This document shows, piece by piece, positions 26,494 through 45,677 of a DNA stretch of 64,000 nucleotides. Location: positions 1,248,001 to 1,312,000 of the forward strand of contig CBDHHL010000032.1 in assembly GCA_965263355.1 (NCBI GenBank). Reading direction: 5' to 3'. The notes under the pieces were generated by a model, which saw nothing but the letters and a program-made list of their open reading frames with translations, made no database searches and had not been told where the DNA came from. The number at the start of each line of letters is the position of its first letter. Positions within the stretch are counted from its first letter, which is position 1. The stretch is from Leptolyngbyaceae cyanobacterium. GTDB lineage: Bacteria; Cyanobacteriota; Cyanobacteriia; Phormidesmidales; Phormidesmidaceae. The translations under genes and the position numbers were made by a program.

Positions 26494-29187
26494 ATGGGGC
26501 GAACAAATCAGCGGTTGGGATGGATGGTAGGGGTTTTGGTGTTTAACCTACCGATTGGGAATATTGCCCAAGCCTTTTCAGAAAACGCTAATTTTGCGTC
26601 CCCTGTCCCTCGCCAGGTCGTTCCCATGGCTCAAGTGCAGCCAGGCACTGGGGCGGCGGAAGCGAATCGTTTGTTTAATCAAGGTTCGCAGCAATATCAA
26701 CGGAGTAACTTTCGGGCAGCCCTGGCATCCTGGGAAGCGGCATTGCAGCTTTATCAGGCGTTAGCTGATGGTAATGAGTTTTTTGAGCAGAATCGGTTGG
26801 CTCAGGCGGATACTCTGACCAGTATTGGAAAAGTCTATGATGCGCTTGGGCAATATGAACCCTCCATAGACTTTCACAATCAAGCATTAGCTATTTATCG
26901 CGAGCCTGTTATTCGTAGTGCTTTGCCGTTGGACAGTCGTCTTGGTGAAGCAGGGGTGTTGATGGGGCTAGGAAATGTTTACAACACCCTCAGTCAGTAT
27001 GAGCGGGCGATTGCATTTCAAGAAGAGGCCCTGGTAATTTATCGAGAGACTGCGATACAGGTAGAGTTTCCTGACAATGCTTTGACGGGTGAAGCTAATG
27101 CCCTCAGTAATTTAGCGCTCAATTATCGTTCTCTAGGGAAATATGATCGCGCTATTAGCACCCACGAACAGGCGCTAGAGATTTATCGCACCAACGAAAA
27201 CCAGCGTGGGGAAGTCATTTCTCTCAATAATCTCAGCATTGTTTATAACTTGTTGAGTCAGTATAAACGCTCAATTGAGCTGCGAGAACAGTCGCTCGCC
27301 ATTGCCCGAGAGATTGGCTATCGACAGGCAGAAGCAGCTTCCCTGGGTGGATTGGCTAATGATTATTATGAGCTGCAGGATTATGGGCGGGCGGTGGAGC
27401 TGTATAACCAAGCGTTGGTGATTTTTCGCGAGATTGGTGACCTGATCGGTGAAGGCCATGCGCTCCATGGGTTAGGCATTGCCCACTACTATCTAAAGCA
27501 ATATGACCAGGCGATTGACTTTTATCATCAGGGACTGGCGCTCTATCGAGAGACGGGGTATCTGGCCTCAACTGGAGATTTGTTAATTGCGTTAGGCATT
27601 ACCTACGATGAGCTTGGAAAGTATACCAAAGCGATTGATTACTACCAGCAGGCATTGGAGTTAGCCCGAGAGATTGGCTATCGAGGGTCTGAGGCAGATG
27701 CGCTAAATAATCTGGGGTTGGTTTATCTGGAGCTGGCACAGCCTGAGATTGCAGACGATTTTTTAACGTTAGCGGTTGATATTTTGGATGACCTGCGAGC
27801 AGCAGGATTAGCAGATGCTGTTCAAATCTCTCTTTTGCAACGGCAGCAGCGGACATTTAAGCTGTTGCAGCAGGCGTTGGTGGACCAGGGCAAGTATGGT
27901 CTGGCGTTAGAAGCGGCGGAGCGGGGACGGACACGGGCATTTACGGCGTTGATGGCGCAGCGGGAACAGCCAGGGACAGCGGCAGAAAATGAGAGCCTAC
28001 GGCTTACGGAGATTGTGTCTCTGGCCCAGAAACTGGATACAACCCTGGTGGAGTACTCTATTGTTAGAATTTCTGAGCTATCGGACCCGATGCTTTATAT
28101 TTGGGTGGTTTCAGCGGATGGGACGCTTGATTTTCGTCAAATTTCCTTAGCTGGTATTGATCTTCAAAAACTGGTTCAAGAGTCTCGTCAAGCCATGGGA
28201 GTCCGTGGGCGAGGGTTTGCTTCAATGTTTTCTGCGGTTGATTTAAGCCGGATGCCTGGATTTGGATGGTCAGGGGATCCGATGGAGGAGCTGACTCAGC
28301 TCCATAAGCTTTTGATTGATCCAATCGCTGAGTTACTACCTGATGATCCAGAGGCAACGGTTGTTTTTATTCCCCAGGGAGAGTTGTTCCTATTGCCATT
28401 TCCAGCGTTGGTGAATGGTGAGGGAGACTATCTGATTGAGCGGCATACGTTACTGACAGCACCGTCGATTCAGGTGTTGGCCCTGACGGAAGCAATGGCA
28501 GCGAGCAGGCAAGGTAATCTCTCCTTAGACGGAACACAGTCTGTAAGTAATCCACTGATTGTGGGTAATCCGACGATGCCTACGGTTGTTTTGAAGAATG
28601 AAGCTGGACGTTTTACCCAGGAGCCATTGCCTGATTTGCCAGGGGCTGAGCAGGAGGCGGAGGAGATTGCTGGTTTTCTGAATACTTCGGCTTTGACAAG
28701 TGATGGTGCGACAGAATCTGTTATTAAACAGCGATTGAGGCAGGCTGATTTGATCCATCTGGCGACCCATGGGTTGTTGGAATATGGTAATCCGGCGGAG
28801 ACGGGGAGTCAGGATACGCCGGGTGCGGTGGCGTTGGCTCCTGGGCTAGGGGAGGATGGATTGTTGACGACTGCGGAGATTTTGCAGCTGGAATTGCAGG
28901 CGTCTTTGGTGGTGTTGAGTGCTTGTGATACGGGGCGGGGTAGGATTACGGGGGATGGGGTGATTGGTCTGTCGCGGGCGTTTGTGGCGGCGGGGGCTCC
29001 GAGTTTGGTGGTGTCGTTATGGGCGGTGCCGGATGCGCCGACGGCTGAGCTGATGACGGAGTTTTATCGGCAGTTGAGTCAGGGGCAGACGAAGGCTCAG
29101 GCATTGCGGCAGGCGATGTTGATGACGATGGAGAAGCATGAGCATCCGATTGCTTGGTCGGCGTTTACGTTAATTGGAGCGAATTAG
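26494..29187 (+). CDS. TPR-repeat CHAT (caspase-like) domain protein
   Basis: N-terminal signal-like segment, many TPRs, CHAT dyad HLATHG / LSACDTG, SLWAV. Confidence 0.92.
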   Translation: MGRTNQRLGWMVGVLVFNLPIGNIAQAFSENANFASPVPRQVVPMAQVQPGTGAAEANRLFNQGSQQYQRSNFRAALASWEAALQLYQALADGNEFFEQNRLAQADTLTSIGKVYDALGQYEPSIDFHNQALAIYREPVIRSALPLDSRLGEAGVLMGLGNVYNTLSQYERAIAFQEEALVIYRETAIQVEFPDNALTGEANALSNLALNYRSLGKYDRAISTHEQALEIYRTNENQRGEVISLNNLSIVYNLLSQYKRSIELREQSLAIAREIGYRQAEAASLGGLANDYYELQDYGRAVELYNQALVIFREIGDLIGEGHALHGLGIAHYYLKQYDQAIDFYHQGLALYRETGYLASTGDLLIALGITYDELGKYTKAIDYYQQALELAREIGYRGSEADALNNLGLVYLELAQPEIADDFLTLAVDILDDLRAAGLADAVQISLLQRQQRTFKLLQQALVDQGKYGLALEAAERGRTRAFTALMAQREQPGTAAENESLRLTEIVSLAQKLDTTLVEYSIVRISELSDPMLYIWVVSADGTLDFRQISLAGIDLQKLVQESRQAMGVRGRGFASMFSAVDLSRMPGFGWSGDPMEELTQLHKLLIDPIAELLPDDPEATVVFIPQGELFLLPFPALVNGEGDYLIERHTLLTAPSIQVLALTEAMAASRQGNLSLDGTQSVSNPLIVGNPTMPTVVLKNEAGRFTQEPLPDLPGAEQEAEEIAGFLNTSALTSDGATESVIKQRLRQADLIHLATHGLLEYGNPAETGSQDTPGAVALAPGLGEDGLLTTAEILQLELQASLVVLSACDTGRGRITGDGVIGLSRAFVAAGAPSLVVSLWAVPDAPTAELMTEFYRQLSQGQTKAQALRQAMLMTMEKHEHPIAWSAFTLIGAN

Positions 29188-29239
29188 TCAGGTATTGAGA
29201 TGGCGGGCTTGATTGAGTCTACTAAACTGGAAAGATAAT

Positions 29240-29662
29240 CTATACAAATGGATTAACGATAGTCAGCTGCTGATTAACGATGAGGCCATTTTGCATGTCT
29301 TCTGAGTAAAGTGTGGAGACGCCCGATGACAATGCAGCCGAGACAATCAGACTATCCCAAAATGAGAGGGTATAATTTTCTCTGAGTAGTGATGCTTGAG
29401 TCAAGATGTTGGTTTCAAATGAAATGATGCGAGAGCCCTGATAGAAGCTGGCAACAAGGGATCTGATCTGTTCCTCTGAGAAGTTTGATTTTTTCTTGAG
29501 GTTAATGCAGACTTCGTTGATGACTTGGGTGCTGATAACTACGCCTGCTGTTTCAATTAGCTTAGCAGCAGTGACTTGTTTTTGTTCTGGCTGGTTTTGA
29601 GCTAAGGCATAGACCCAGATGTTGGAATCTAAAAAGTGGCCAGGAGTTGCTTTATCGCTCAT
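29240..29662 (-). CDS. PIN domain (VapC-like) toxin
   Basis: FLDSNIWVY, STQVINE, SFWDSLI, LYSEDM; ATG at 29662 overlaps the upstream gene's stop. Confidence 0.9.
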   Translation of the reverse strand: MSDKATPGHFLDSNIWVYALAQNQPEQKQVTAAKLIETAGVVISTQVINEVCINLKKKSNFSEEQIRSLVASFYQGSRIISFETNILTQASLLRENYTLSFWDSLIVSAALSSGVSTLYSEDMQNGLIVNQQLTIVNPFV

Positions 29663-29903
29663 AGATTTCTTCGCGGGTGAGGGGAGCACCATCAAATTTG
29701 ATTGGATTTTGGATGAGGTCTGCAATAATTCCGACGGCAGCGGTGGATGTAGTAGGCTCCGTAATGGCTAATGGCGACTTTGAGATATCTGTAGGTGTCC
29801 CTGTGACCTGAGCTTCTAGCAGCTGCATAAGTTGACTGACTAGATATACCAGGTCTTGGAAACTTAATCCTTTGGCGGCCTGGAGGATTTCTTTGGGAGT
29901 CAT
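29652..29903 (-). CDS. Putative antitoxin of the PIN toxin
   Basis: Small gene overlapping the PIN gene; C-terminal LTREEIYER is typical of VapB-like partners. Confidence 0.75.
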   Translation of the reverse strand: MTPKEILQAAKGLSFQDLVYLVSQLMQLLEAQVTGTPTDISKSPLAITEPTTSTAAVGIIADLIQNPIKFDGAPLTREEIYER

Positions 29904-30169
29904 GGGATTAGATGGATAGCGGGTTTAGGACATGCAGGTTTAGCCTCAATGCTAAAGCATTCTGGCTATTTGTTTGGCAAGGTCTCCATTGATACATGCT
30001 ATGCGGATTTTTGAGTAGCGGCTCGATTTTATTCAATTACTGATGCTTTTCTAGGGAATACTGGCGTTGGCTTTAGTCAGTTAATGTCCCGATTTACTCC
30101 AAAATTGGTTGTATATTTAGAAAATCAGGACATTGGACACGTAAGCAGCCTATATCGAGAATTTTTAGC

Positions 30170-32695
30170 ATGGTCACGACGGTATCCTCAAAATACTGTA
30201 AAAATCTGGATTATAGCTTTCTATTATTGACCCATATTATTTGTGCTGACCAACAAATCCACGTTCAAGAATCGCGGGCACTGCGGGAGCTGGCTCAGCA
30301 GGTGCGTGTCGATGAGTTAACGCTCCAGGAAATGGAGAAAATCCTAGGCCAGGAGGATACTCAAATTTCGTTGGAAACAGCGGCCCAGAATGTTCCGTTG
30401 TCTCAAAGAACTGAATCCCTGAGACAGCTATTGGCCATCGCTTATGTTGACGGATATTTTTCGCCGCTAGAACGCCAGGTTATCGATCAGGTGGCTCGGA
30501 TGTGGGGTGTTCCTGGCCATGAAATTGACCAGATGCTAAAGACGGCTCAGGGGTTACAGCAATCCTATATCCGTGGAAATAGCCATGGTGAGCCAGACAA
30601 AAATCACCTGTCCATTGGGGCAAAATTACTGAAGGGGGCAGAGTCTGTTTTATCGAAATTTTTGATCACTCAGCTGACGGAATTAGCTCCAGGGGCTGTC
30701 GGTGAAAAAATTGAGCGGCTGCAGCGAGAGATTTTGTTGTCTGGTCCTGAGTATGACCAGGCAATTCAGCAATGCGCCACCATTGCGAAAGCGGATTTTG
30801 GCTATGCTGACAAGGCTCTTAAAGCCACATCCCTATCCCTTCGAAATTTAGGCAAAGGGTTACAACAGGGGATGTATACGTTCCAGCAAAAGGCGGTTGG
30901 ACAGGGCAATGCCCAAAGTGTTAAGAATGTGGCCCAGCAGCTGGAACAAACCCGAAAAAATTTCTTGTCTGAAATTTTAGAAGATTTAGAATCGGTGCAG
31001 GCGGCACTGCAAGCAAAACAGCGTTCCCTGGGGCATTTTAGTGTTGCCTTTATGGGCCGTACCAAGGTTGGTAAAAGTACGCTCCATGCAGTAATTACAA
31101 AGGAAGGCTGGGAGGCCATTGGCGTCGGTAAACAACGCACTACCCGCTATAACCGGGTGTATGAGTGGAACAATATTCGCATCATTGACACGCCGGGGAT
31201 TGGTGCGCCGGGGGGTAAAACCGATGAAGAGATTGCCCGCAACATAATTGAAGAAGCGGATGTGATTTGCTATGTGGTGACCGATGACAGTATTCAAGAG
31301 GCGGAGTTTGAATTTCTCAAAATTCTAAAAGAGAAAACTAAACCCCTGATTATTCTGCTAAATATTCAGTACAATCTGCGAGACTCTCGACGGCTGGAGC
31401 ATTTTCTAAAAAATCCAGAACGATGGTTTGCTCAAGAGGGCCGCAGTGGTATTGGGGGCCACCTAAATCGAATTCGGCGCTATGCTCAGCAGCATTATGC
31501 CAATGACTATCTGCCGGTGGTGCCGGTAATGTTGTTGGCGGCTCAGCTAGCCCAGGAACCCGACCATGGGCATCGGGCACAGCCATTGTTTAAGGCTAGC
31601 CGCATTCAAGATTTTCTAGATTCTATTCGTGTTTCGTTGATTGACTATGGGGCGATTCGGAGATCGCAAACCCTACTGGGGTCAACGGTGGGGGCTATTC
31701 ATAAGCCCCAGCAGTGGATTGGCCGTCAGGCCAAGACATATCAGGAACTGGCCCAGGATCTCCAGGAGAAACGTCAACAGCTTGCGAAACAACTTCAACA
31801 GGCCCATAACGATCAGCAAGCTACTTTAGAACAGTCCCTGCGGGAGATATTTCAATCCGCCTTTGACCAAGTGACGCCGTTTGCTGAAACCTACTGGAAG
31901 GCCGGCAAACGTAAGCTGCAGCGGAAGTGGAAAGAGGTGCTAGAAGACCTGGAGTTTGAAGAACGGCTGCAGCTAGTGGCTAAGGATACCAGCCAGGACT
32001 TGCAGGCTCAGGTGCAAACGGCGCTGGAAGAAATTGGCAATGAACTGCAAATCATTCATCGGTTACACCATTCAAACTTTCATTTCTCAGCCCAGGATTC
32101 TAGCGTTATCGATCAAGATTTTATGCGGATTACCGGGATGGCATTGGTGGCAGCGGGGGCTATGCTGGCCTTTGTGTTTCCACCGTTGGGACTGCTGAGT
32201 TTGGTGGGGGGCATTGTTAGTTGGGTAGGTGGCTGGTTTGAATCGCGATCCGACAAGCGTCGTAAGGCAGTGAACAAGATTTCTGAGGCGTTGTATCAGC
32301 AGCTTGATCAAGAACAGGACAGGATTATTCCTCAAGTCAAGGACAATTTTGAGAAATATTATCAATCGGTGGCGACCAGTGTTGATGGGTATTTTGCAGG
32401 TTTGATTGACGGGATTGGCGCGATCGCAACCCAACTTCACACCACCCAACATGAGTTAAACCGTGCCGCCAATGGCCTCAACCGGGCCTATGGCAAACGC
32501 ATCATCGACTGGGCCACCGATCAGCCAGAAACCCTGACGGATCAGACCATCCATCAAATCATCCATAGCGTCAGTCGAGACTTTGGCCGCAATCTAGAGA
32601 TTCAAACCACACAGCCTGTCTTGTTGACCAAATCCCAGGATGAGATTTGTCGCATCCTGCAAGAAGACGTCTCAATTTCCCCCGTAAACCCCTGA
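30170..32695 (+). CDS. TerB-domain dynamin-like GTPase
   Basis: N-terminal TerB-like motifs (IICADQQIHVQE; IAYVDGYFSPLE), G1 GRTKVGKS, G2 RTT, G3 DTPG, helical stalk, hydrophobic hairpin near aa 655-690. Confidence 0.8.
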   Translation: MVTTVSSKYCKNLDYSFLLLTHIICADQQIHVQESRALRELAQQVRVDELTLQEMEKILGQEDTQISLETAAQNVPLSQRTESLRQLLAIAYVDGYFSPLERQVIDQVARMWGVPGHEIDQMLKTAQGLQQSYIRGNSHGEPDKNHLSIGAKLLKGAESVLSKFLITQLTELAPGAVGEKIERLQREILLSGPEYDQAIQQCATIAKADFGYADKALKATSLSLRNLGKGLQQGMYTFQQKAVGQGNAQSVKNVAQQLEQTRKNFLSEILEDLESVQAALQAKQRSLGHFSVAFMGRTKVGKSTLHAVITKEGWEAIGVGKQRTTRYNRVYEWNNIRIIDTPGIGAPGGKTDEEIARNIIEEADVICYVVTDDSIQEAEFEFLKILKEKTKPLIILLNIQYNLRDSRRLEHFLKNPERWFAQEGRSGIGGHLNRIRRYAQQHYANDYLPVVPVMLLAAQLAQEPDHGHRAQPLFKASRIQDFLDSIRVSLIDYGAIRRSQTLLGSTVGAIHKPQQWIGRQAKTYQELAQDLQEKRQQLAKQLQQAHNDQQATLEQSLREIFQSAFDQVTPFAETYWKAGKRKLQRKWKEVLEDLEFEERLQLVAKDTSQDLQAQVQTALEEIGNELQIIHRLHHSNFHFSAQDSSVIDQDFMRITGMALVAAGAMLAFVFPPLGLLSLVGGIVSWVGGWFESRSDKRRKAVNKISEALYQQLDQEQDRIIPQVKDNFEKYYQSVATSVDGYFAGLIDGIGAIATQLHTTQHELNRAANGLNRAYGKRIIDWATDQPETLTDQTIHQIIHSVSRDFGRNLEIQTTQPVLLTKSQDEICRILQEDVSISPVNP

Positions 32696-32710
32696 TCTAA
32701 AATACCTTTC

Positions 32711-34465
32711 ATGTCGTCTATCAATCCCACCTTCAAAGCCGCCCACATCAGCCAACAATTCCAAGCAGCCTGTAGCCAATTTGATGCGCTGCTAGCCCAG
32801 GCTGATGCCCAGGAACTGGCCCAGATTCGCCAAAAATTTTACGATGGCTTAAAAGACTATGAGCAACAGGGCACCTTAACCGTTGCCTTTATCGGTCAGT
32901 ACAGTGCGGGTAAATCCACCATTATTTCTGCCCTCACGGGACGGCGGGATCTGCACATTGATGCGGATATTGCCACGGATACTACCACCACCTACGGCTG
33001 GAACGGCATCAAAATTATTGATACTCCGGGGCTGTTTACCGACCGTCCTGACCACGATGCCATTACCTATGGTGCGATCGCAAAAGCCGACCTGCTGGTG
33101 TTTTGCCTCACCCACATGCTGTTCGACACCCTCACCCTAGAAAATTTCAAAAAGCTTGCCTACGACAAAGGCTATCGCTGGAAAATCATGCTGGTGGTCA
33201 ACAAAATGTCGGCAGGAGCCGGTGATGAAACACAGAAAATTGCCAGCTACCGCCACAGCCTCACAGCAGCCCTGAAGCCCTACGACCTCGATGAATTCTC
33301 CATTTCCTTTATAGATGCCAGGGACTACTGCGAAGGCATTGATAACAACGATGATTTTTCCACGGAGATCAGCCAATTCGATACCTTTATCACTGAACTC
33401 AATCAGTTTGTTGAGCGTCGTGCCTCCCTCACAGGTTTAGATACCCCAGTGCGCATTTTGCTGGGTTGCCTGGATCAGGCCCAGATCGCCTTTGCTCGAA
33501 ACTCCAATGAAGATACGGCATTTTTAGAGGTATTGTCACGGCTATCGCGCCGCATCAACCAAGAGCGAGAACGCCTGCGCACCAAAGTCAAAGCCATCAC
33601 CCTAGAAATGTCATCGGCCATTACCACCGAAGGCGCAAAACTGGCCTCAGCGGTCGGGGATGAGCAGTTTGAATCCATGAATAAGCAGGCTGAAATCAAC
33701 GTATGTCAGCAGTATGAACAAGCCGAAAAAGCCATTGAAAGCACGGCTGAGAATGCGGTGAAATCGATTGAAGAGGAAGTGTTAGCCGAGCTAAATAGCC
33801 CCTTAGCCCAGGCAGTTGTGGCTCAACTCAGTTTCACGGGTGCCGTTGCCCACAATGGTCCTGTGAACAATAGCAATACGCAACAGGCCCAAGGCCAGGT
33901 CGAATGGTTACAAAAAATTGGTGGGCAGGTTGGCGCAGGCATCACTAAGGCTGCCACCAGGGGCGTTGCTTCCACAGCCGGGTCTGGATTTCTTCGATCA
34001 ATGGATGTGGCTGGCAGCAGTTTGCATCAAGGCGTATATGAAGTTGGAAAGTTTATCGGGTTCAAGTTCAAGCCCTGGCAGGCAGTGAATGTCGCTAAAA
34101 ATATCGGCAATGCCGCTAAATTTCTAGGTCCAGCTGTTGCCGTTCTCTCTATTGGACTAGAACTACATACCATGCAACAAGAAAGAGAATATGAAAAACA
34201 AATGGCCGAGGTGCGCCGCGACATCACCAGCCAATTTAAGGCCATTACCGTGGATCTAGACCAACAAATTAAAGCCCAATTGCAAGACTTTGAAGCCAAA
34301 GTTTATGGCCTTTTAGAAAACAATATCGCTGAGGCACGCCATCAAACAGAAACAGCCATGGTCACATCCCATACAGAAATTGGACGTATTGCAGCCATCA
34401 GAAAAGACCTGGATGCCATTCTCCAGGACGTTCATCACGCAGCATCAGATCAGGAGAATGACTAA
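32711..34465 (+). CDS. LeoA/HP0731-like dynamin-like GTPase
   Basis: G1 GQYSAGKS, G3 DTPG, G4 NKMS, long helical region, Gly-rich paddle with FKFKPWQAV. Confidence 0.8.
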   Translation: MSSINPTFKAAHISQQFQAACSQFDALLAQADAQELAQIRQKFYDGLKDYEQQGTLTVAFIGQYSAGKSTIISALTGRRDLHIDADIATDTTTTYGWNGIKIIDTPGLFTDRPDHDAITYGAIAKADLLVFCLTHMLFDTLTLENFKKLAYDKGYRWKIMLVVNKMSAGAGDETQKIASYRHSLTAALKPYDLDEFSISFIDARDYCEGIDNNDDFSTEISQFDTFITELNQFVERRASLTGLDTPVRILLGCLDQAQIAFARNSNEDTAFLEVLSRLSRRINQERERLRTKVKAITLEMSSAITTEGAKLASAVGDEQFESMNKQAEINVCQQYEQAEKAIESTAENAVKSIEEEVLAELNSPLAQAVVAQLSFTGAVAHNGPVNNSNTQQAQGQVEWLQKIGGQVGAGITKAATRGVASTAGSGFLRSMDVAGSSLHQGVYEVGKFIGFKFKPWQAVNVAKNIGNAAKFLGPAVAVLSIGLELHTMQQEREYEKQMAEVRRDITSQFKAITVDLDQQIKAQLQDFEAKVYGLLENNIAEARHQTETAMVTSHTEIGRIAAIRKDLDAILQDVHHAASDQEND

Positions 34466-34467
34466 TA

Positions 34468-35466
34468 ATGGGCATGCTTGTTTTTACAATTCATGGTGTA
34501 GCCACCCGAGATTCCAACTACTCTAAACCCTTGGAGAAGCTTGTTAAAAAGCATATTGAAATAGCTAATCATCAGGCAAAAGGGTGGTTTGATTTCTTTC
34601 CAAGCGTTTTTTCTCCTATAGACGGTGATAACTCCTCTGAAAACAAGCCAGAGATTCCGTTACCCATTTTTGCTTCAAGTTTCTGGGGCGTGCGGTTCAC
34701 CCAAACCGATCACTTATGGAATGGAATTCGCCAGGGCTTAACGAATTTACAAGAAACTCATCACAATGTAGATATACAGGATGTTTTCCGTTACCAGGAA
34801 CTACGACAGGGCTTTATCACAGATTTTTTTGGTGATATTCTCCTATACCTCAACGAAGATAACGGCAGAGATATCCGCCAAAATATCGCGGACCAATTGA
34901 GCAAAGCCATTCGCCAACATCCTGAGTATCCTCAAATTCATCTGGTGGCCCACTCCCTGGGCAGCGTTATTCTCTGGGATGTGCTCTTTTCTGAAAGATT
35001 TACCCCTGGCGATCCAGCCTACAAAATACGCGCATTGTTAAACCTGGATCAGCCGTCTGCTCAGGTTGGAAATAAAGGCATCACCAGCATTACCACCATG
35101 GGTTCACCCATCTTGTTTTTTAATTTAATGTTTGACATCAAGCCCGCTCAGATTCAGCAGAGATTATCTGATAAAAAGGTCAGATGGCTAAATCTTATCC
35201 ACTCATCGGATATCATCGCCTATCCGTTACGATCCATCTTTAGCCCATTGCCAGACTTATTCTTTAGAGATAAATACATTTGGGCAGATGCCAATATAGC
35301 TGAAAAGGCCGCACGTTCTTTAAGGCAAGAGCATGCAGCGATGGCACTCGGTGTTTCTGATGGACATGTCTCCTATTGGCATAGTGATGTGACAGCGCAT
35401 CTACTGGCTGCTAATCTAATGGGTAATACAAAAGCAATTGATTCTCAAACAATAGATACCGAGTAA
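34468..35466 (+). CDS. Alpha/beta hydrolase-fold (lipase-like) protein
   Basis: FTIHGV oxyanion segment, nucleophile elbow AHSLG, TMGSP, DIIAYPL, GHVSYW. Confidence 0.78.
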   Translation: MGMLVFTIHGVATRDSNYSKPLEKLVKKHIEIANHQAKGWFDFFPSVFSPIDGDNSSENKPEIPLPIFASSFWGVRFTQTDHLWNGIRQGLTNLQETHHNVDIQDVFRYQELRQGFITDFFGDILLYLNEDNGRDIRQNIADQLSKAIRQHPEYPQIHLVAHSLGSVILWDVLFSERFTPGDPAYKIRALLNLDQPSAQVGNKGITSITTMGSPILFFNLMFDIKPAQIQQRLSDKKVRWLNLIHSSDIIAYPLRSIFSPLPDLFFRDKYIWADANIAEKAARSLRQEHAAMALGVSDGHVSYWHSDVTAHLLAANLMGNTKAIDSQTIDTE

Positions 35467-37474: not shown

Positions 37475-39000
37475 TAGGGCAAACGCAGCTATTTAGTATA
37501 AATCGTACTTGACAGTACCTCCTTTATCTGAATTTTGACTATTTCAGAAACGTCTAACCATGCTTATGTGGGTCAGTGTCAAGCGTCCACCTCAAATGAG
37601 AGATTATGTTGCATAATCTCTCATTTGACCGTATTCAGTTCAACTCTCTTAAGTGAAAGTTTTCTCTCACTTACCCAGAAATACCCACGACATTATTCGG
37701 TTATATCAATCATGAGAAGACTTAACAAATAATTGTTATCCAATGCTGCCCGATACCGTTTTATCTTAATGCTACCTTTGGTCGAATCTTGTTTGATGAC
37801 ACTCACACACAAGCGACGTAGTAATCCCATATTCTCTGGCCCATGGCCTTTTCGAATCCGACTATTATCTTCTTTGAAGGTCACATCTAGGACCCAATGC
37901 AGACTATTTTCAATGCTCCAATGAGACCGTATTGATTGAGCAAATACCGTCGCATTTGCCGTCATGCTGCTGATATAAAAATGTATCTGTTCTTCTTCTT
38001 TGTTCTGTAAAATTCGTTTGCGACGCACCATGACAATACTCGTTAACCCCGTCCATTTCTCTCGATTCCATAGATTCGGTACCTGCTCGATGGGAACCAC
38101 CCAAGTCTGACGATGTTCTATTCGATGATGTGCCGACTCAGTGCTGCTCGTATAGTCATACTCAATCCCTTGCCAGTCATTGGCTATCGCCTCTTCAAAA
38201 AAGTGTTTAACCCCCTGATAAAGCGTGTCTTGATTGGCTTTAAGCGCTAAAATATAGTCTCCTCCTCCGGCAACGATTTGCGCCGCAATCGCCGTTTGAG
38301 TCCCCATGGCATCTAGGGTGATGATAGTCCCCTCTAGCGACAACATCTCCAACACCTCGGGAATCGCCGTAATCTCATTCGATTTACTATCGACCCGTTG
38401 CTGAGCTAGCACAAGGTGATGCTCTGAGGCCCATGCACTCACACTATGCAGCGCCTTGAGTCCGGTCTGTGTGTCTCTAGACCCACGATGCGTTTTGCCA
38501 TCAATATGGATTAATTTGATCGACAACTGAGTCGTTATTTGCTCTATCCATTTTAAGAAAAACGCTTCAAACTGATGGGGGGCAAGTTGGGCAAAGACTC
38601 TTGAAAAGGTATCGTGGGACGGAATCCCATGGGGCAACTCTAAAAACGTTGATAACCACTCATGTTTCGAATTGCCGTAGGTTTCCACGGCCTCCATCGT
38701 GTCGGCTCCACATATGGTTGCCAAAATCGCAATCGTTACAATATCAACCAGCAGATGGAGTGGTTTTCGTTTCGTGCGCGGATCGTCCAAACCGTTGATC
38801 TCATTGAGAATACTGGTTTTGATCACTTTAGCTGGTGATGAACTTGACCGACTTGGGGAACGTCCAAATCCTTGAGGCATTGGCTGACATCATTAGGAAA
38901 CACGACGTACACCTTACCTTACATGCTCTATGACGAGATCACCTCGAAGCCGACTCATTCTGTCAAGTACATTGGATACAAAATAAGTGCGTTTACCCTA
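37475..39000 (-). mobile_element. ISAs1 family insertion sequence
   Basis: 41-bp imperfect terminal IRs: TAGGGCAAACGCAGCTATTT...GTACTTGACAG (37475-37515) and the complement of 38960-39000; encloses the transposase; no target duplication visible. Confidence 0.9.
37693..38880 (-). CDS. ISAs1 family transposase
   Basis: DPR, GIPSHDTF, IDGK, KSNEI, DAMG, LKANQ, RSHWSIENSLHWVLDVTFKED. Confidence 0.95.
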   Translation of the reverse strand: MPQGFGRSPSRSSSSPAKVIKTSILNEINGLDDPRTKRKPLHLLVDIVTIAILATICGADTMEAVETYGNSKHEWLSTFLELPHGIPSHDTFSRVFAQLAPHQFEAFFLKWIEQITTQLSIKLIHIDGKTHRGSRDTQTGLKALHSVSAWASEHHLVLAQQRVDSKSNEITAIPEVLEMLSLEGTIITLDAMGTQTAIAAQIVAGGGDYILALKANQDTLYQGVKHFFEEAIANDWQGIEYDYTSSTESAHHRIEHRQTWVVPIEQVPNLWNREKWTGLTSIVMVRRKRILQNKEEEQIHFYISSMTANATVFAQSIRSHWSIENSLHWVLDVTFKEDNSRIRKGHGPENMGLLRRLCVSVIKQDSTKGSIKIKRYRAALDNNYLLSLLMIDITE

Positions 39001-39234
39001 CCCGGTTTTGGGGGAGTTGCCAGACTTCAACCAATATTTCAGATCAACGAAGCGGGGCAAATCGTCTTTAGAGCGACCTCACAAGGAGGTAATGGGCCTG
39101 GAAACGCTATTCTTCGGGCAGATCCAGTTATTGACTCAACTCCAGTTCCCACCCCCGCTCTTCTTCCTGGACTGGTAGGTATGGGTGTAGCAGCACTACG
39201 CAAGCGCAAGCAAGAGACTGAGTTGGAAGCTTAA
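39001..39234 (+). pseudogene. C-terminal fragment of a PEP-CTERM/PTPA-CTERM surface protein
   Basis: INEAGQIVF repeat-like motif, then VPTPALLPGLVGMGVAALRKRK sorting signal; the 5' part is replaced by the IS. Confidence 0.8.
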
Positions 39235-39313
39235 GTTCTCTCACTCGCCTGCAGCTCATGATTTTTCACAATGAGGTTTGACTACCTCAGAACCTCAACG
39301 AGATTCTGAGGTA

Positions 39314-39650
39314 ACCTCAGTACGGGATAAGAAATGGAGGGGTTGAGTAAGCTGAAAAAACAAAAAACATTCAGCTAGCCCCTCCTATGTCCAGTTTAAA
39401 AGAGCTTTTCTGTCAGATTGATGACTTTTGCCAAATCTTTGAACCTCAGTGGCAGGCCACGCTCATTAGCAACGGAGTGCGCCATCGTCATCGGCAACGC
39501 TTAATGAGCTTAAGTAAAATCATGACGATTCTGGTGAGCTTTCATCAACAGTCGTATCGTAATTTCAAGCATTTCTACCAAAAGCATGTCTGTTGCTATT
39601 GGCGTCGTGAGTTTCCAGGCCTCCCCAGTTATCAACGGTTTATTGATTAA
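39314..39650 (+). pseudogene. IS982 family element, left end and truncated transposase (CDS 39387-39650)
   Basis: MSSLKELFCQIDDFC...IMTILVSFH...YRNFKHFY...FPGLPSYQRF then stop; ACCTCAGTACGGGATAAG end-like sequence at 39314. Confidence 0.8.
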
Positions 39651-39964
39651 TGGAAGATAGCAGAGATATTTCCAAAATAAGGCGTAGGCTACTGTGCAAA
39701 ATGGGATATCGCTTTGACAGAGAGACTGGGAAATTTCTTGGTCAGGAGGTAAACGGGAAACTTTACAAATCAGGGGAGATGGCCCCTGCATGGAACCCGA
39801 TCAAGGGGAACTTTTTGAAAGAAGTGACCGAGCCTGAGGTTCCAGAATCTGAGCGCCCAGAAATTGGGAAGATAGATGAGTCTTGGCTCCACAGCTGTCC
39901 CATGCCTCGAAAGACTCTGAGGGGCGTCAATAAAGATCTTTTCCCAGACACTCGTGCTAATTGA
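39650..39964 (+). CDS. Hypothetical protein (possibly a fragment)
   Basis: 104-aa ORF starting at the IS982 breakpoint; no family recognised. Confidence 0.35.
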   Translation: MEDSRDISKIRRRLLCKMGYRFDRETGKFLGQEVNGKLYKSGEMAPAWNPIKGNFLKEVTEPEVPESERPEIGKIDESWLHSCPMPRKTLRGVNKDLFPDTRAN

Positions 39965-39988
39965 TTGCTGTGATTTTTTTTAAAGTCT

Positions 39989-40486
39989 ATGACATCGCTA
40001 TCAGAGGTTTTATTGCTTGTGCCCCTTGGCCGATCAGATGGCTTCGAGAAAACGGATTACAGACGAGTGCTCAATACACTCCGTTATATCCACGCTAATC
40101 CGAAAGCAGCGGGAATGCAGCGAGGGTTCTTTTATGATTTCTCCAACTATGGCAGCTACGATCGCCTCAAAGATGACGGTCTGACGGAATGGCATCCTGC
40201 CTTTTTATCACTGGGAGAATCGTTGGATGAATGTGCGAAAGAATATCGCAAGTTTTGCAAACGCTACAAACCCAAACCCAAGTCAGAAAAACGTAGCTTT
40301 TGGGGAAGTAAATTGCTACCCAAAGTGTTGAAAGCGTCGGAACGGAAGAAACGATCGCCAGGTCAACTGCGACTACTGTGGGATGACTGGAAACCGACTC
40401 AAGAGGTTCGCAACGTCGCTGAACAATTTGTTATGGCCAATTGCTATGACCCCAAAGTCGCTGCCCAGTTTTTTAATGACTCGTAG
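39989..40486 (+). pseudogene. REP-associated (Y1/RAYT-like) transposase, C-terminal fragment
   Basis: LNTLRYIHANPKAAGM...YDFSNY catalytic-Tyr segment present; the N-terminal HUH part is missing. Confidence 0.65.
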
Positions 40487-40653
40487 CGATGAAGAGCGCT
40501 ATCCGTTGGCCTGGACAGTATAAGGGGATACCAAATCTCTCACTGATGACGGATAGCGGAACAGTGCCAGGTAACGAATGGGTAAAAAGCCGATGAATAC
40601 GTAGAGAAGATCATCTGAATATAGCTTGACAAGCGACCTGAAGTCCTTATATG

Positions 40654-40870
40654 TTACAGGTTACAGTTCGCAATGCGAGAGAAGACCACCACCAACCCCG
40701 ACACCCCACCAACCACCCCACACCCAGGACCATCACCCGCGCCCCCACCACTCGAGAAAAGCCGGGAGATGGGCTTCAGGGGCACTCAAGTCATTCCCAC
40801 TAACTCCCTCTGACCATGTCAGTTCGTCGTAGTTAAGAAAATATATTTCGTCAGACAAGCCATCCGAGTC
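40654..40870 (-). pseudogene. Frameshifted 3' end of the GUN4 domain, with an adenine-depleted tract
   Basis: A second frame reads DSDGLSDEIYFLNYDELTWSEGVSGNDLSAPEAHLPAFLEWWGRG* (stop 40733-40735). The original frame resumes ...GVVGGVSGLVVVFSRIANCNL* (stop 40654-40656). Confidence 0.75.
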
Positions 40871-43572
40871 CAGCCGATCTCTTCTATGAACTTAATCCAG
40901 GCTGCTTCATTATACTGCCCTGGTGTATTGCCTGTTGCCAAAAACCTATTTTTCTGAACGCTAAAACCATAACGCCCCTCAGAATGATCAGACCAGAGGG
41001 TGTCCACCTTTCGCAAATGGTCGCAGGCGATATTCGAATACAAAAAACTCAAATCCCTGGAATATGCTGACGATAAAAGCGCATCCCAAGTCAGCCCATC
41101 GGCGTCTCGCCACCGATGCTCCTCCAAAGCTTGATCTAGCTCCCGAATCAATTGCTTCGCTCGAAAGTCATGGTGTTTTTTTAGGGCAGCAGTGACTAAT
41201 GCGCGCAATTGATTGCCCTCTGAATTATCAGATAAGGGAACCCTCAGCAATTGGTCGAAGGAGTTTGCAATGTTCTCTGAATTAAAGTTTGGTGTTTCAG
41301 AGATGTAGCCGAAGGCTTGTTCATAGGATGCGTAAGCACTGGGCAGCTCTTCTTGCTCTTCCTGTAAATTTCCCTGAACTGCATAGGTAAAGAATGCGAT
41401 CTCTCGCCCCGACTTTGATTGAAATACATCAGGATTGTTTTGGATCAACCCATCGCTTTCATCGATCAGGGTTTGTGCCTTACTAATTTGCTTTTGTGCT
41501 TCTCCACTGAAGTCATCTGACGGAAACGGAATGAGATGGAGGTGAGCCAGGGCAGTACCACTCTTTAAGAGAGCTTGTTTCAAGTCAGAACTATCCTCTG
41601 TAAACTCGGTAAACGATAAACCAATCTGTTGAATAACATCATCGGCAGCTTCAGACTTATCAATGACGTGGAGGTCGTCGATGAGACCCGAGAGTGCTTT
41701 AGTGGTTTCATTCAGGGCGGCAATTTCTTTTTGCTCTCGTTGAGCTACGTCCAGTTTACGTTGAGCCTCTTGTTCTGCCTGTTCCGCTTGGGCTACAGCA
41801 GCATCAGCATTGGCTAAGTTTTGCTCAAGCTGTGCCAGTAACGTCTGCTGCTCTTGGGTCGCTTGCTGGGCTTGTTTCAGTTGCTCTTCTGCCGCTTGAC
41901 GCTGTGTTTCGGCATCTTGCAGTTCCTCCTGAGATTGCGCTACTTCTTCCTCGGCTGCAGTCAATTCATCGCGAGCTTGAGTCAAGGCTTGTTCGGCGTC
42001 ATCTTTTTTTTGTTGAATTTCGGTTAACTCTTTCTCCGCCGCTGTAGCTTTGATTTCAGCCTCTTCAGTTAGGGTCTCAGCCTTTTTAAGCCGCTGATTC
42101 GCCTCATGCACTTGCTTTCCTGAAAATAGAGCCAATCCTCCGAACACGAGAGCTGTGACCAGCGTACCGCTTAACACTAAACTCCCTCGGCGAATCTTCC
42201 GTTGAGCCTGCCGATTGGCTTGTGCCTGAATCTGCTCAGCGGCTTCGGCAGCTTCTCGGGCCGCTTTTTCCCGTGCCAGTTCAGCTTCTTCTTCTTGCTG
42301 TTGGATACGCGAAGCTGACAAAAACTCCTGATCTTCGATACTGGGGCTTCTCTCTACGGCCCATTGCTCCGCCTCTGCCAGAGCCTCTCCACGCAACAAT
42401 CGGGACCTGTCTGTTTTGCCTGACGAAATCCAAGCACGAAAACTTTCCGAGTAGGGGCGCAATTTTTTTAATTCCGCATCAATCCACACCTCGTCAAAGA
42501 CAGCCGCATAAATCGGGTTATAGACCTGGAGTAGGCCATCACGTTTAACCACCAACCCTGCCAGTTGCAACTCCCGCTCTTCTAGTCGATTCTGAGCCGA
42601 TAGTGACCCCAACTGCCGAATCTGGCGATACAACTCCAACAAATATCCGGCTTTTTGCTCGTTATCCAGCAGACGTTTGCGAATGGTCTTCAGGTGTTCC
42701 TGATGGTCTTGCGATTCCCACTGCTCAATCACCTGAGAGCGCACTAATCCTTCGACTGCCGTTGGTTCACTGCCCTCAGTGATCGGAAATTTAGAATCCA
42801 CCACCAATTGACAGACCCGTTGGGTAAGAAAGGGTTGTCCACCGGTCCAGTGCAAGATTTCCTGTAACACCACCGGGGGACGATCCGCCTTTACTGCCAA
42901 TCCAGCTGCCAGGGGCAAGGCTTCCTCGACGTCAAACCCTTTCAGGTTAATGGCCTTGCCAATATTAAACGGTGTTCGCTTGACATCCCCAATCAACTCC
43001 GATGGCATGGCCACACCAAACAAAGCCAGGGTCAACCGTTGATAGTCTGGATTTTCTGCCCGCTTGTTATAGCAGGCGCGAATTAGGGCAAAAAAGTCGT
43101 CGGTAAAGGGCAGAGTGATGGTGCTATCAATCTCGTCAATCAAAATCACAATGGAGCGATCGATACCCGGCAAGAGCACCGTCTCGATAAATTCTCCTAA
43201 CCGTTCCACCGGAGCAATAAAATCCCGCTCTTTCAACCACTGACGAAATGTCTGACGATCAAGCAATTTCAATTCACGATTCAGTTGATTGATAATCCCG
43301 GCATACCAGCGGTCGGGCTGATCCGATTGGCTATCTTTAGCGGAAAAATCCAGAATCACTCCCGTCCAACCAGCTGCTCGCAATCGGGTTAGCGTCCGCA
43401 CCATCAGACTCGATTTACCCATCTGCCGCGAATTTAAGACGTAGCAGAATTCCCCCGCTTTCAGGGCGTCATACAAGTCATCATCACTGCCACGCGTCAC
43501 ATAGGAGGGCACATCCTGCGGTAAAGCACCCCCAACTTTATAGAAGCGGTTGGACAGAGGGGCGTCACTCAT
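40819..43572 (-). CDS. AAA_35 ATPase - TM - coiled coil - GUN4 domain protein (C-terminus frameshifted)
   Basis: Walker A NSRQMGKSS, Walker B ILIDEID, WTGGQPFLTQ, LLRGEALAEA, a TM helix, heptad coiled coil, GUN4 motifs WRDAD and DTLWSDHSEGRYGFSVQK. Confidence 0.85.
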   Translation of the reverse strand: MSDAPLSNRFYKVGGALPQDVPSYVTRGSDDDLYDALKAGEFCYVLNSRQMGKSSLMVRTLTRLRAAGWTGVILDFSAKDSQSDQPDRWYAGIINQLNRELKLLDRQTFRQWLKERDFIAPVERLGEFIETVLLPGIDRSIVILIDEIDSTITLPFTDDFFALIRACYNKRAENPDYQRLTLALFGVAMPSELIGDVKRTPFNIGKAINLKGFDVEEALPLAAGLAVKADRPPVVLQEILHWTGGQPFLTQRVCQLVVDSKFPITEGSEPTAVEGLVRSQVIEQWESQDHQEHLKTIRKRLLDNEQKAGYLLELYRQIRQLGSLSAQNRLEERELQLAGLVVKRDGLLQVYNPIYAAVFDEVWIDAELKKLRPYSESFRAWISSGKTDRSRLLRGEALAEAEQWAVERSPSIEDQEFLSASRIQQQEEEAELAREKAAREAAEAAEQIQAQANRQAQRKIRRGSLVLSGTLVTALVFGGLALFSGKQVHEANQRLKKAETLTEEAEIKATAAEKELTEIQQKKDDAEQALTQARDELTAAEEEVAQSQEELQDAETQRQAAEEQLKQAQQATQEQQTLLAQLEQNLANADAAVAQAEQAEQEAQRKLDVAQREQKEIAALNETTKALSGLIDDLHVIDKSEAADDVIQQIGLSFTEFTEDSSDLKQALLKSGTALAHLHLIPFPSDDFSGEAQKQISKAQTLIDESDGLIQNNPDVFQSKSGREIAFFTYAVQGNLQEEQEELPSAYASYEQAFGYISETPNFNSENIANSFDQLLRVPLSDNSEGNQLRALVTAALKKHHDFRAKQLIRELDQALEEHRWRDADGLTWDALLSSAYSRDLSFLYSNIACDHLRKVDTLWSDHSEGRYGFSVQKNRFLATGNTPGQYNEAAWIKFIEEIGWTRMACLTKYIFLTTTN

Positions 43573-45677
43573 GCCAGACTCCTTAAGCGTGAACGAAAAT
43601 AGGGACGATACAGTCGATCATGGCGCAATACCACAGCATTGCCTTGCAATGTCACCAGTCCCATGCCATTGAGTTTAAAGCCAAGTATCGGCCTTAGCTC
43701 CACCGGGCGATCCGTCATAATCACTTGCTCAAACGCTGTGGCCAAGTCGGGATGTTGTTGTAAATTCCATAGGTGTCGTCGCAGATGTTCGCCATAAATC
43801 CCTCCATCGGTGGGAGCGTCTGTTAGCAGTTCCGGTAACGTCATATCCTGTTGCGCTAGATGATACAGTGCCAGACGCACCAGATAGGGATGTCCCCCCA
43901 CCATATCCATCAACGCCTCCACGTCACCCGTGCCCCAACGTAAGCCATGCTTGTCCACCAACTCCAGCACCTGCGCAACACTAAACTCGGGCAGGTCCAC
44001 TGCCAGACCCACATTAAAGGGTGATGAATTCGTATCCAAGACCACATAGGATTCGGTGGAATGGGCGATTGCCATCCGCAGCTTAGCCCAGGTGTCATTC
44101 ACCTTGGCTTTTTCATTCCAGGACCGCAACAGAGTCAGAAATTCTTTCGAGACCGTTTCATAGGGAAACAGGCGATCCAGTTCGTCCAGCCCCAAGAATA
44201 AAGGTGCATCGAGCGTCGATAATAACTCCTCTTCAAAATAGTCGCTACAGTTTTCTTTGGGACCAAACAAGTCTTCGTCCCAACAGTCTTTTACCCGTTT
44301 GGGAGATAGCCCCAATTGCTTACTGACCGACGCACAAAATCGTTTCAAAAACACACTGGCATCGGTAAATGCTCGTTCATCGGTCTCTAAAAATGAGATC
44401 GTCACCGGGTGATAGCCCAACTGGACGGCATGATCTCGAATCCTAGCCAGCAGAGAGGTTTTACCCATTTGCCGGGGTGCTTTGATTCGCACCAGTCCAG
44501 CCCTATGGTTAATCTCTTGCAAGCAGCGCGTGTCCAAGGGTTCACGCCGGATATAAAATTCGGAATTCAGCGGCATCGTGCCACTGGGCAGCTCCAGATC
44601 AGCAACGGGCAGTGGTGGTCCCTTGGCAGTTGGTATTGCACCAGGAGTTGGTTCCGCTGCAATCGGTTCTGGCACTCTACCCTCAACAATCAATTCCGTC
44701 AGCTCTTGCACCAGGCAAGGGGTATCAGCAGGCGATTGCCAGTCTGACTGGGGGATGGTTTGCAACGCCCGCCACAATTCTGAATGGAGGGGATAATCGT
44801 GGGGTAAATTAACCCGAATTGGCAATATCACGGGTCTCTCCCGTTGCTCCCACATTTGCCGTGCCGTTTGCACTTCCCCGGCGACCCGGTCACTACCAGC
44901 TAAGGGCTCAGACAGTAACAGCAGCAGGTAATCACAGCGTCGCAATTCCTGATCAATCTGGGTGACCTGCTGGAGTCCATCAGCCACCAGCACTGGAGTA
45001 TGTCCCGCTGTTTTTAGACGGTCATGGAAGGCTTGCGCCAGAGTGACCTCGGATGCTTGATTCCGATAGCGAATGAACACGCGCTGCCCTGTAGTAGGAT
45101 CATCCGTCGCTGCGGATGGCCCTAACCAGACTGGGGTGTGTTGCTCTGGAATTCCCGCCAGTTGAATCGCATTACAGCCAAATTTATAGGCCCTTTCATA
45201 GGGCTTACCCGCTCCCAGAGCATCATAGAACCCCACGGCAAACTCGATAGCCGCCCGGTCGCCAATGGCATTTGTCATACCAATCACGTAGGGAATGTGC
45301 TGGGCAATAGCTGTCGCCTGTTCCTGGGAATAGCAGGCATTGAGCAGGACACACTCCACCTGATCGGCCACAAGTTCGAACAGCCCAGACAAGGCTTCCC
45401 CATTGACGAATTTTGCTTGCCCCGTCTTATCTTCAAAGACCAGCCCCTCTTCACCTGCGCCGTGTCCTGAAAAATGGATAATATGGGGTTCGTGGCGGAG
45501 TATTGATCGGCGTAAATCTCGATAGCGTAATGCCGTAGCTGTCTCGATAGTAAATTGCGATCGCTGCTTGGCACGGAGGAGTCCTTCCTCAATCTCCCGC
45601 ATTTCCTCATCCAGACGCACCTTGGGAGTGCCCTGAGGATTCGCAGATAACAGTAAGATTTTGCGGAAATCGCTCAT
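43569..45677 (-). CDS. CHAT - TIR-like - AAA_35 protein
   Basis: CHAT motifs ILLLSANP, HFSGHG, LNAC; TIR-like RVFIRY...CDYLLLLLS...VAGEV...PVILPIRV; AAA_35 APRQMGKTS, LDELD, GGHPYL; ATGA overlap with the downstream gene. Confidence 0.88.
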   Translation of the reverse strand: MSDFRKILLLSANPQGTPKVRLDEEMREIEEGLLRAKQRSQFTIETATALRYRDLRRSILRHEPHIIHFSGHGAGEEGLVFEDKTGQAKFVNGEALSGLFELVADQVECVLLNACYSQEQATAIAQHIPYVIGMTNAIGDRAAIEFAVGFYDALGAGKPYERAYKFGCNAIQLAGIPEQHTPVWLGPSAATDDPTTGQRVFIRYRNQASEVTLAQAFHDRLKTAGHTPVLVADGLQQVTQIDQELRRCDYLLLLLSEPLAGSDRVAGEVQTARQMWEQRERPVILPIRVNLPHDYPLHSELWRALQTIPQSDWQSPADTPCLVQELTELIVEGRVPEPIAAEPTPGAIPTAKGPPLPVADLELPSGTMPLNSEFYIRREPLDTRCLQEINHRAGLVRIKAPRQMGKTSLLARIRDHAVQLGYHPVTISFLETDERAFTDASVFLKRFCASVSKQLGLSPKRVKDCWDEDLFGPKENCSDYFEEELLSTLDAPLFLGLDELDRLFPYETVSKEFLTLLRSWNEKAKVNDTWAKLRMAIAHSTESYVVLDTNSSPFNVGLAVDLPEFSVAQVLELVDKHGLRWGTGDVEALMDMVGGHPYLVRLALYHLAQQDMTLPELLTDAPTDGGIYGEHLRRHLWNLQQHPDLATAFEQVIMTDRPVELRPILGFKLNGMGLVTLQGNAVVLRHDRLYRPYFRSRLRSLA

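Follow-up and report, generated by a model that had tools for sequence, protein, structure and literature searches.

A convergent RAYT-like transposase and a three-frame terminator cassette accompany hypervariable tips of cyanobacterial GUN4 sensors

Only a handful of bacterial mechanisms for targeted diversification have been described, and the best characterised, the diversity-generating retroelement (DGR), copies a fixed template and keeps the length of the segment that it rewrites. As set out in the pertinent parts of PMC7517822 and PMC7159879, DGRs (the BPP-1 type and those of cyanobacterial CLec proteins) hypervary the 3' end of a ligand-binding domain attached to kinase, caspase, TIR or NTPase modules, and combine a downstream cis element with dispersed targets; the GUN4 tips described here share these traits. 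The known cyanobacterial targets of DGRs are CLec domains, and in the part of PMC7517822 that treats them GUN4 is named only as an accessory domain. The closest arrangement in print is that of marine picocyanobacteria, in which procA (prochlorosin) genes face tnpA-REP genes and a diversifying recombination has been proposed (Laurenceau et al., bioRxiv 10.1101/2020.03.09.984088). A note added to that preprint after submission withdrew the causal claim, stating that there was no strong evidence for or against cause, and the association is called there unique to picocyanobacteria. The present system resembles it in a convergent subclass 2.1 TnpA-REP, in many 3' fragments, in a conserved intergenic sequence and distance, and in a variation, with indels, that is focused on the 3' coding segment. 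It differs in its targets, which are the GUN4 domains of large sensors and the cores of cyanobactins, neither of which figures in the main text of the preprint, and in three features likewise absent from that main text, namely a three-frame terminator, a strand-biased wholesale replacement and a frozen control that lacks the cassette. A literature search weighted to openly readable papers found nothing on GUN4 tips in connection with hypervariation or a transposase. In the passages of PMC7159879 and PMC8195603 that concern it, GUN4 is listed as a domain that serves conflict systems as effector or sensor, and tip variation is not mentioned there. Most likely, an HUH-transposase-linked diversifying arrangement of the kind proposed for prochlorosins is now found on GUN4 sensors and cyanobactin cores, together with a three-frame terminator.

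The window locus and its alleles

The locus lies in a window of 64,000 nt, the whole stretch analysed, from a Leptolyngbyaceae cyanobacterium. Its features are collected in Table 1, and its two-gene layout (CHAT-TIR_2-AAA_35 followed by AAA_35-GUN4) recurs at two further loci (L001 and L002).

Table 1. Features of the sensor gene pair, the tip and the facing transposase remnant (window coordinates)
Feature	Coordinates	Strand	Basis or remark
CHAT - TIR_2 - AAA_35 protein, 702 aa, first of the gene pair	43569..45677	-	Pfam
Target gene: AAA_35 NTPase, helical region and GUN4 domain, 917 aa as written	40819..43572	-	Pfam; the intact orthologue P0155 has 964 aa
Upstream frameshift patch: 2 extra nt and 3 substitutions relative to X3; private lesion or assembly error	40855..40864	-	
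Remainder of the GUN4 scaffold, read in the second frame; its last codons, His-Leu-Pro (40763-40771), form the border of the tip	40763..40852	-	30/33 identical to P0155
Hypervariable G/T-rich tip, 75 nt (82 nt counted to TCTCGC), with in-frame TGA at 40733-40735	40688..40762	-	
Conserved cassette: mini-hairpin and TAA in three frames (40663-40661, 40656-40654, 40649-40647)	40647..40687	-	
Fixed-length spacer from cassette to end motif	40574..40646	.	TCTCGC-to-end-motif distance 107 nt here
End motif TACCTGGCAC, adjoining the 3' end of the transposase gene	40564..40573	-	
3' remnant of a convergent RAYT-like (TnpA-Y1, HUH) transposase, residues 105-246; YIHANP kept, HUH half absent	40034..40486	+	tblastn, 62% identity to a full-length relative, E 3e-51

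A sequence-only reading of the window had noted that the 917-aa frame ends early, that the GUN4 scaffold goes on in a second frame to ...APEAHLP and that the first frame later reads FSRIANCNL*, and had counted only 2 A in the 95 nt of the coding strand from 40675 to 40769. These observations hold (G46 T30 C17 A2), and the stretch has the minimum 95-nt A count on both strands of the window, the next regions having 6-8. Few related tips are as poor in A as that of the window (5 of 164). The interpretation of the frames as two compensating frameshifts does not stand, as the first frame has two stops between the shifts and the HLP frame runs into a TGA inside the tip, so that there is no translation through to FSRIANCNL. 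Nor is the second frameshift a lesion, because the cassette behind the tip supplies an ending in every frame (FSRIANCNL*, LLSHCEL* and SSLALRTVTCNI* in the window) and the shift is therefore built in. The first frameshift is private to the window: the X3 contig is without the 2 nt at 40855/40859, and P0155 reads through.

Alleles were compared over 39900-43600 using Logan contigs from four runs (X1-X4), which are assembled contigs and not raw reads; X1-X3 are three runs of one study, possibly including the source sample, and are thus not independent of the window. No RNA run was listed among those that contain the locus. P0155, obtained by protein search, is identical to the window at 479 of 480 N-terminal and 98 of 98 GUN4 scaffold residues and carries, before FSRIANCNL, a tip unrelated to the window tip. 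The X1 contig spans 40039-40846 and is a net 26 nt shorter than the window, and all 12 substitutions and 10 gap sites among those listed fall within 40689-40744. In X2, X3 and X4 the contigs stop at the border of the tip (40687, 40682 and 40686, respectively). Replacement of the tip is all-or-none: one scaffold bears three tips, measuring 82 (window), 56 (X1) and 69 nt (P0155) to the cassette, and a further 26 relatives with a full GUN4 end have tips that differ by eye, many of their cassette-type ends having decayed. As the earlier reading anticipated, the 3' ends of GUN4 relatives are hypervariable in sequence and in length, and the tails of close strains (P0155, X1) are not invariant. Upstream, at 41190-41807, X1 (depth 11.8) and X3 have a different 613-nt segment, and the P0155 protein departs from that of the window there as well; co-occurring strains exchange this helical middle of the sensor. 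A metagenome scan yielded 10 loci, five with a GUN4 neighbour and none near-identical (best segments 36-82%).

With its upstream frameshift, in-tip stop and truncated RAYT, the window copy looks like a broken, decayed or mis-assembled allele. It is possible, although we rather doubt it, that the frameshift and the stop arose as consensus errors when a long contig was assembled from a mixed population, in which case the scarcity of A would be overstated too. The window protein is indeed a singleton on a 3.9-Mb contig, the window version of 40847-40861 occurs in none of the contigs listed while X1 holds at least two strains, and stops within tips are rare. However, a minor X3 contig (depth 3.4) tracks the window to about 40725 with one difference among those listed, and the adjacent RAYT is truncated too, as in a decaying copy. 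In either case the explanation concerns the window only and leaves the finding at the level of the system untouched. The 5' half of the window RAYT is missing, and an IS982 fragment (39387-39650) and an ISAs1-type DDE transposase (37693-38880) lie upstream of the remnant, within 37693-40033. An X3 contig extends for 526 unlike letters past 40039, where depth falls, and the majority strain may therefore retain the whole RAYT gene. At 26494-35466, some 5-14 kb from the sensor pair, a TPR-CHAT gene, a PIN gene and a TerB-dynamin-like GTPase pair (Pfam) form a neighbourhood that looks like a defence or conflict island.

The hypervariable tip and its cassette

The GUN4 domain of the window scores 57 bits against the PF05419 profile (cut-off 29.2), and that of a relative (L064) matches PDB 1Y6I by sequence (E 5.5e-20), HLP aligning at about residues 206-208 and the tip starting at the equivalent of Synechocystis Gun4 residue 209. 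AlphaFold models the L064 domain with confidence as helical (pLDDT 91); the weakest block (71, residues 131-140) coincides with the start of the tip, after which comes the final helix. In the account that PMC2757182 gives of this region, R214 and R217 lie in the porphyrin-binding alpha6/alpha7 loop of Gun4. Canonical Gun4 (PDB 1Y6I, 1Z3X) has the same domain, but its segment after HLP is unchanged in 9/9 genomes, whereas a variable tip takes this place in the present sensors; since the arginine-bearing alpha6/alpha7 segment is thereby replaced, the ligand likely differs from porphyrin. The proposal that the HLP-FSR segment is a hypervariable tip at the ligand-loop position of a non-lectin GUN4 domain is borne out by the alleles, the Microcystis loci, the Gun4 alignment and P0155.

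The search pattern for the cassette was derived from the nucleotide sequence common to two plasmid hits across the stop codon. In a scan of 26 of the 64 parts of the genome collection it matches 121 stretches, 119 of them titled cyanobacteria, and almost every one is a GUN4 C-terminus attached to one of various N-terminal modules (such as kinase, caspase or TIR, assigned by reading the N-termini); the cassette is present in 1-7 copies per genome, at GUN4 ends. Its conservation is partly so by construction, because the cassette anchor belonged to the search pattern, and a blind search with the transposase, given below, serves as the check. A non-redundant set of 164 cyanobacterial tips was compiled, omitting a chance match in an alphaproteobacterium (L113), tips without an HLP-type anchor, tips outside 15-215 nt, six near-duplicates and the window itself, which the anchor rule missed. 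Tip length in this set is 23-205 nt (median 71; 78/28/58 modulo 3), and the composition is G36 T32 A19 C13. A stop in the HLP frame occurs in 8 of the 164 tips, the other two frames having 97 and 91, and in an earlier set of 137 tips stops were seen in 3 and 4 where shuffles predicted about 43/65 and 43/72. Purifying selection acts against in-tip stops. The cassette places TAA at +17, +24 and +31, and in 147 of the 164 no frame stays open beyond 40 nt, so that a tip that is out of frame is still a working allele and takes one of three short tails. A mini-hairpin of at least 4 bp is found in 139 of the 164 cassettes (17 of 31 distinct variants) against a background of 17%; it is short and constrained by the triple coding, and long-range folding of the cassette gave no convincing structure.

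Among 10 Microcystis loci with at least 90% mutual upstream identity, tips of 37-104 nt share a single related pair. In four other clusters the tips are identical or nearly so between genomes, and rewriting is hence episodic at most. Where the cassette is lost the tip is frozen: a kinase-sized GUN4 paralogue of Microcystis that lacks it keeps one G/T-rich tip in 9/9. Local duplications in tips exceed those of shuffles, whether copied from the tip itself (9 vs 1.2), from upstream (5 vs 0.7) or from downstream (4 vs 0.2), and the word CACCT is enriched within tips (17 vs 2.4). ACCT was considered as a guide-like word and set aside as a lead only: it is enriched (37 vs 13), yet only 23 of the 37 lie in the left half, and the enrichment stems partly from a few duplications. 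At one locus (L168, G025:C1:2578309-2578408) a new G/T-rich stretch with an intact cassette comes after an old tip and a decayed cassette; it looks as though a tip had been newly written immediately upstream of the intact copy. In several Nostocales (L082, L045, L062, L107 and L134) short tandem-repeat elements, with units like AAGTCAA, stand directly after the cassette or inside the RAYT gene, and their insertion is, to judge from these loci, a common route of decay.

The facing transposase and its other targets

When ORFs from 124 loci were clustered, the convergent RAYT-like gene was the sole recurrent neighbour family, and no RT family or other polymerase gene was conserved beside the targets. 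A RAYT or its remnant, in many cases a 3' remnant, lies downstream in 27 of 78 loci that have 1.2 kb of flank. The distance from TCTCGC to the end motif is fixed at 106-107 nt in 78 of the 82 motif-bearing loci (162 examined). A blind search of 201 cyanobacterial genomes with the transposase alone as query matched 22 of them, and among the 26 new loci examined (from 38 matches) 21 RAYT copies face a GUN4 tip, two face cyanobactin precursors, one faces a 335-aa gene and two are themselves N-terminal fragments. The marks of the procA/tnpA-REP type, that is, a convergent pair, a conserved distance and variation confined to the 3' coding segment, are thus all found here.

Twenty-eight full-length RAYT copies retain the HUH (NHxH) and YIHxNP motifs, 27 of them with FWExRY. 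The best family match of a full-length relative is NF047646 (REP-associated tyrosine transposase) at 73 bits, the copies scoring 61-73 against a cut-off of 80, and comparison by sequence with solved structures gave no significant match. The relatives have the characters of TnpA-Y1 class 2, subclass 2.1 (RAYT group 1), the window copy comprising the Tyr half only. With that subclass (TIRYT), as characterised in the relevant sections of PMC6006769 and PMC8266576, they share the motifs NHVH, WE and YIHxNP, a length of about 250 aa that includes a C-terminal extension, a low copy number and the lack of GTAG REPs; unlike it, they show by eye no conserved element upstream of the gene (17 loci), the conserved DNA being downstream only, where it overlaps the last codons of the host gene. 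The system has neither the GTAG tag in its cassette consensus nor the dispersed hundreds of copies of a REPtron, with only 1-7 per genome, and it departs from IS200/IS605 elements in having no common upstream end by eye (17 loci) and sites limited to a few target types. The RAYT genes adjacent to the targets are mostly broken. In Microcystis a near-full, stop-free RAYT is present in 4 of 17 genomes, and 4 have no match, including a complete chromosome with variable-type tips; any activity must therefore be past, in trans or imported.

At L298:9567-11958, L299:97-2810, L300:10763-12488, L315, L316, L317, L318 and L326, members of this RAYT clade face cyanobactin precursor genes whose cores are unrelated; beyond the two copies of the blind search, precursor-facing copies occur in genome G039 and at five Microcystis loci. 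The three full-length precursor-facing RAYT proteins form one clade (support 100/99) in a tree in which L274 and L278 are labelled "other" though both face GUN4. The gene order at L298 is protease A, two precursors, transposase and prenyltransferase F. In the published sph (PMC6162287) and art (PMC4663559) clusters a transposase lies between the E and F genes and is given no role in the descriptions of the clusters there; its position is as in L298. PMC10783134 and PMC4603692, in the passages on such transposases, interpret them as signs of transfer. The cyanobactin cores show little G/T bias (14 cores, A21 C22 G26 T31), which weakens the case for a single fill mechanism or else reflects stronger selection.

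Several loci deserve separate record. A 16-kb cluster (L302:120-15957) holds four GUN4 genes with four different tips, two identical full RAYT copies and a fragment. In the Fischerella genome G005 (L128, L132, L134-L138, L263-L265) seven cassette sites and three ordinary DGRs with lectin-type targets are found side by side, as two diversifying systems. At L301:918-2951 a divergent RAYT (50% identity) faces the 335-aa gene, perhaps autotransporter-like, which has no NCBIfam match and closes with a short Cys/Trp tail; judging by this arrangement, it is possibly a further target class. The intergenic hairpin at L301 resembles the consensus printed by Laurenceau et al.

How the tip may be rewritten

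These data allow a model to be proposed in which the tip is probably, though far from surely, a slot that is rewritten wholesale after a RAYT-like HUH transposase nicks the DNA at the cassette, the gap being refilled by untemplated or very error-prone synthesis. We infer the causal steps from genomes, and they suggest that the transposase is likely the driver of rewriting. Upon nicking at the cassette the old tip would be lost, and the gap would then be refilled by untemplated or low-fidelity synthesis and closed by short homology at the HLP side. HUH cleavage of single-stranded DNA, in the account given in PMC8266576, yields a free 3'OH, which can serve as a primer for synthesis or be rejoined. 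The new DNA may well be untemplated, with a G/T-rich coding strand, a C/A-rich transposase strand and occasional local duplications as in end-joining. The transposase could act in trans on cassettes whose own copy has decayed. The tip itself would set the ligand specificity of an immune-type NTPase, TIR, caspase or kinase sensor. The proposal fits the excess of duplications, the duplicated cassette with a new tip at L168 and the fact that no source was found in the own genomes (two tips) or in the phage and plasmid collections (three tips and one).

An alternate scenario, which we regard as unlikely, is one of passive spread, in which the cassette and transposase are a mobile or once-mobile end and an old pool of tips is shuffled by homologous recombination and horizontal transfer, with diversifying selection and ordinary indels in a free loop added. 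Such a scenario would accommodate the identical tips in different genomes, the many RAYT genes that are broken or not found, the selection on tips and the exchange between strains of the gene middle as well (41190-41807 replaced in X1/X3, and P0155). However, it leaves unexplained where unrelated and strand-biased sequence of any length comes from, why there are a three-frame terminator and a fixed spacing of 106-107 nt, why a tip without cassette is frozen and why the same transposase clade faces other hypervariable segments.

It is less probable still that the transposase captures short existing DNA, namely foreign or genomic single strands, and inserts it into the slot by strand transfer and ligation, with no untemplated synthesis. 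E. coli TnpA-REP is reported, in the part of PMC8266576 that concerns its activity, to cleave and recombine single-stranded DNA at a dinucleotide, there are also long, A-rich tips (up to 259 nt), and CACCT is enriched inside tips. Against such capture stand the strong G/T bias and the failure to find a source in the own genome (0/2), in a phage collection (0/3 at E < 0.1) or in a plasmid collection (0/1), although the search for foreign sources is a weak one, the collections being thin in cyanobacterial viruses and several short joined pieces being apt to escape it.

The origin that the sequence-only reading had proposed, namely that the tip is a remote target of DGR hypermutation, is hardly credible on the present data, drawn from relatives and from the window, even though the variable region is A-poor, lies at the 3' end and precedes a hairpin, remote targets are known for cyanobacterial DGRs (as PMC7517822 has it where it discusses them) and RTs abound in the related genomes examined. 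A DGR-aware scan, in which mismatches were permitted solely at template A, was run on 9 RT regions with 11 GUN4 tips from G001, G003 and G005; it recovered true TR/VR pairs with lectin-type targets at 4 of the 9 regions, but the GUN4 tips gave 4-8 non-A mismatches per 40 nt, the same as shuffles (5-8). No template copy of the tip was found in the remainder of the 64-kb window, and two long tips of relatives had no second copy in their own genome (2/2 tested). Tip length spans 23-205 nt in all three frames, unlike the near-constant, template-set length of DGR variable regions, and paralogues within one genome have no common template. Length change, which had been read as a by-product of a DGR, is the rule and is absorbed by the three-frame terminator. 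In addition, C is as scarce as A in tips, and no RT family recurs beside the targets. RT matches were listed for five genomes, with a DGR-type RT and Avd in G005 and G001; in the complete Microcystis chromosome (G019) the five RT hits have frames that are all 607-620 aa, none of DGR size as judged by length alone, and tips are variable in Microcystis. The GUN4 tip system thus differs from a DGR in lacking a template repeat and an A rule, in its free length, in its GUN4 rather than CLec target and in its HUH enzyme in place of RT/Avd.

The nick-and-refill model leads to a broader and more tentative proposal, somewhat short of probable, that cyanobacteria possess an RT-free, CDR3-like diversifier, comprising a domesticated HUH clade, an untemplated fill of random length, a three-frame terminator and target-specific subclades for GUN4 sensors and for cyanobactin and prochlorosin cores. 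In GUN4 tips length and sequence are both free, frameshifts are absorbed by the terminator, and the slot sits at the ligand-binding position of Gun4. The available data open the unproven procA/tnpA-REP idea to direct test in those culturable strains of Nostoc, Anabaena or Microcystis that carry an intact copy, and the system is a possible tool for generating loop or peptide libraries in vivo. The hypervariability of cyanobactin cores has been described in print, in the literature to the extent that it was available, without a mechanism, and the same transposase clade faces those cores; if true, an RT-free diversifier would be one mechanism behind the long-puzzling hypervariability of cyanobacterial RiPP cores.
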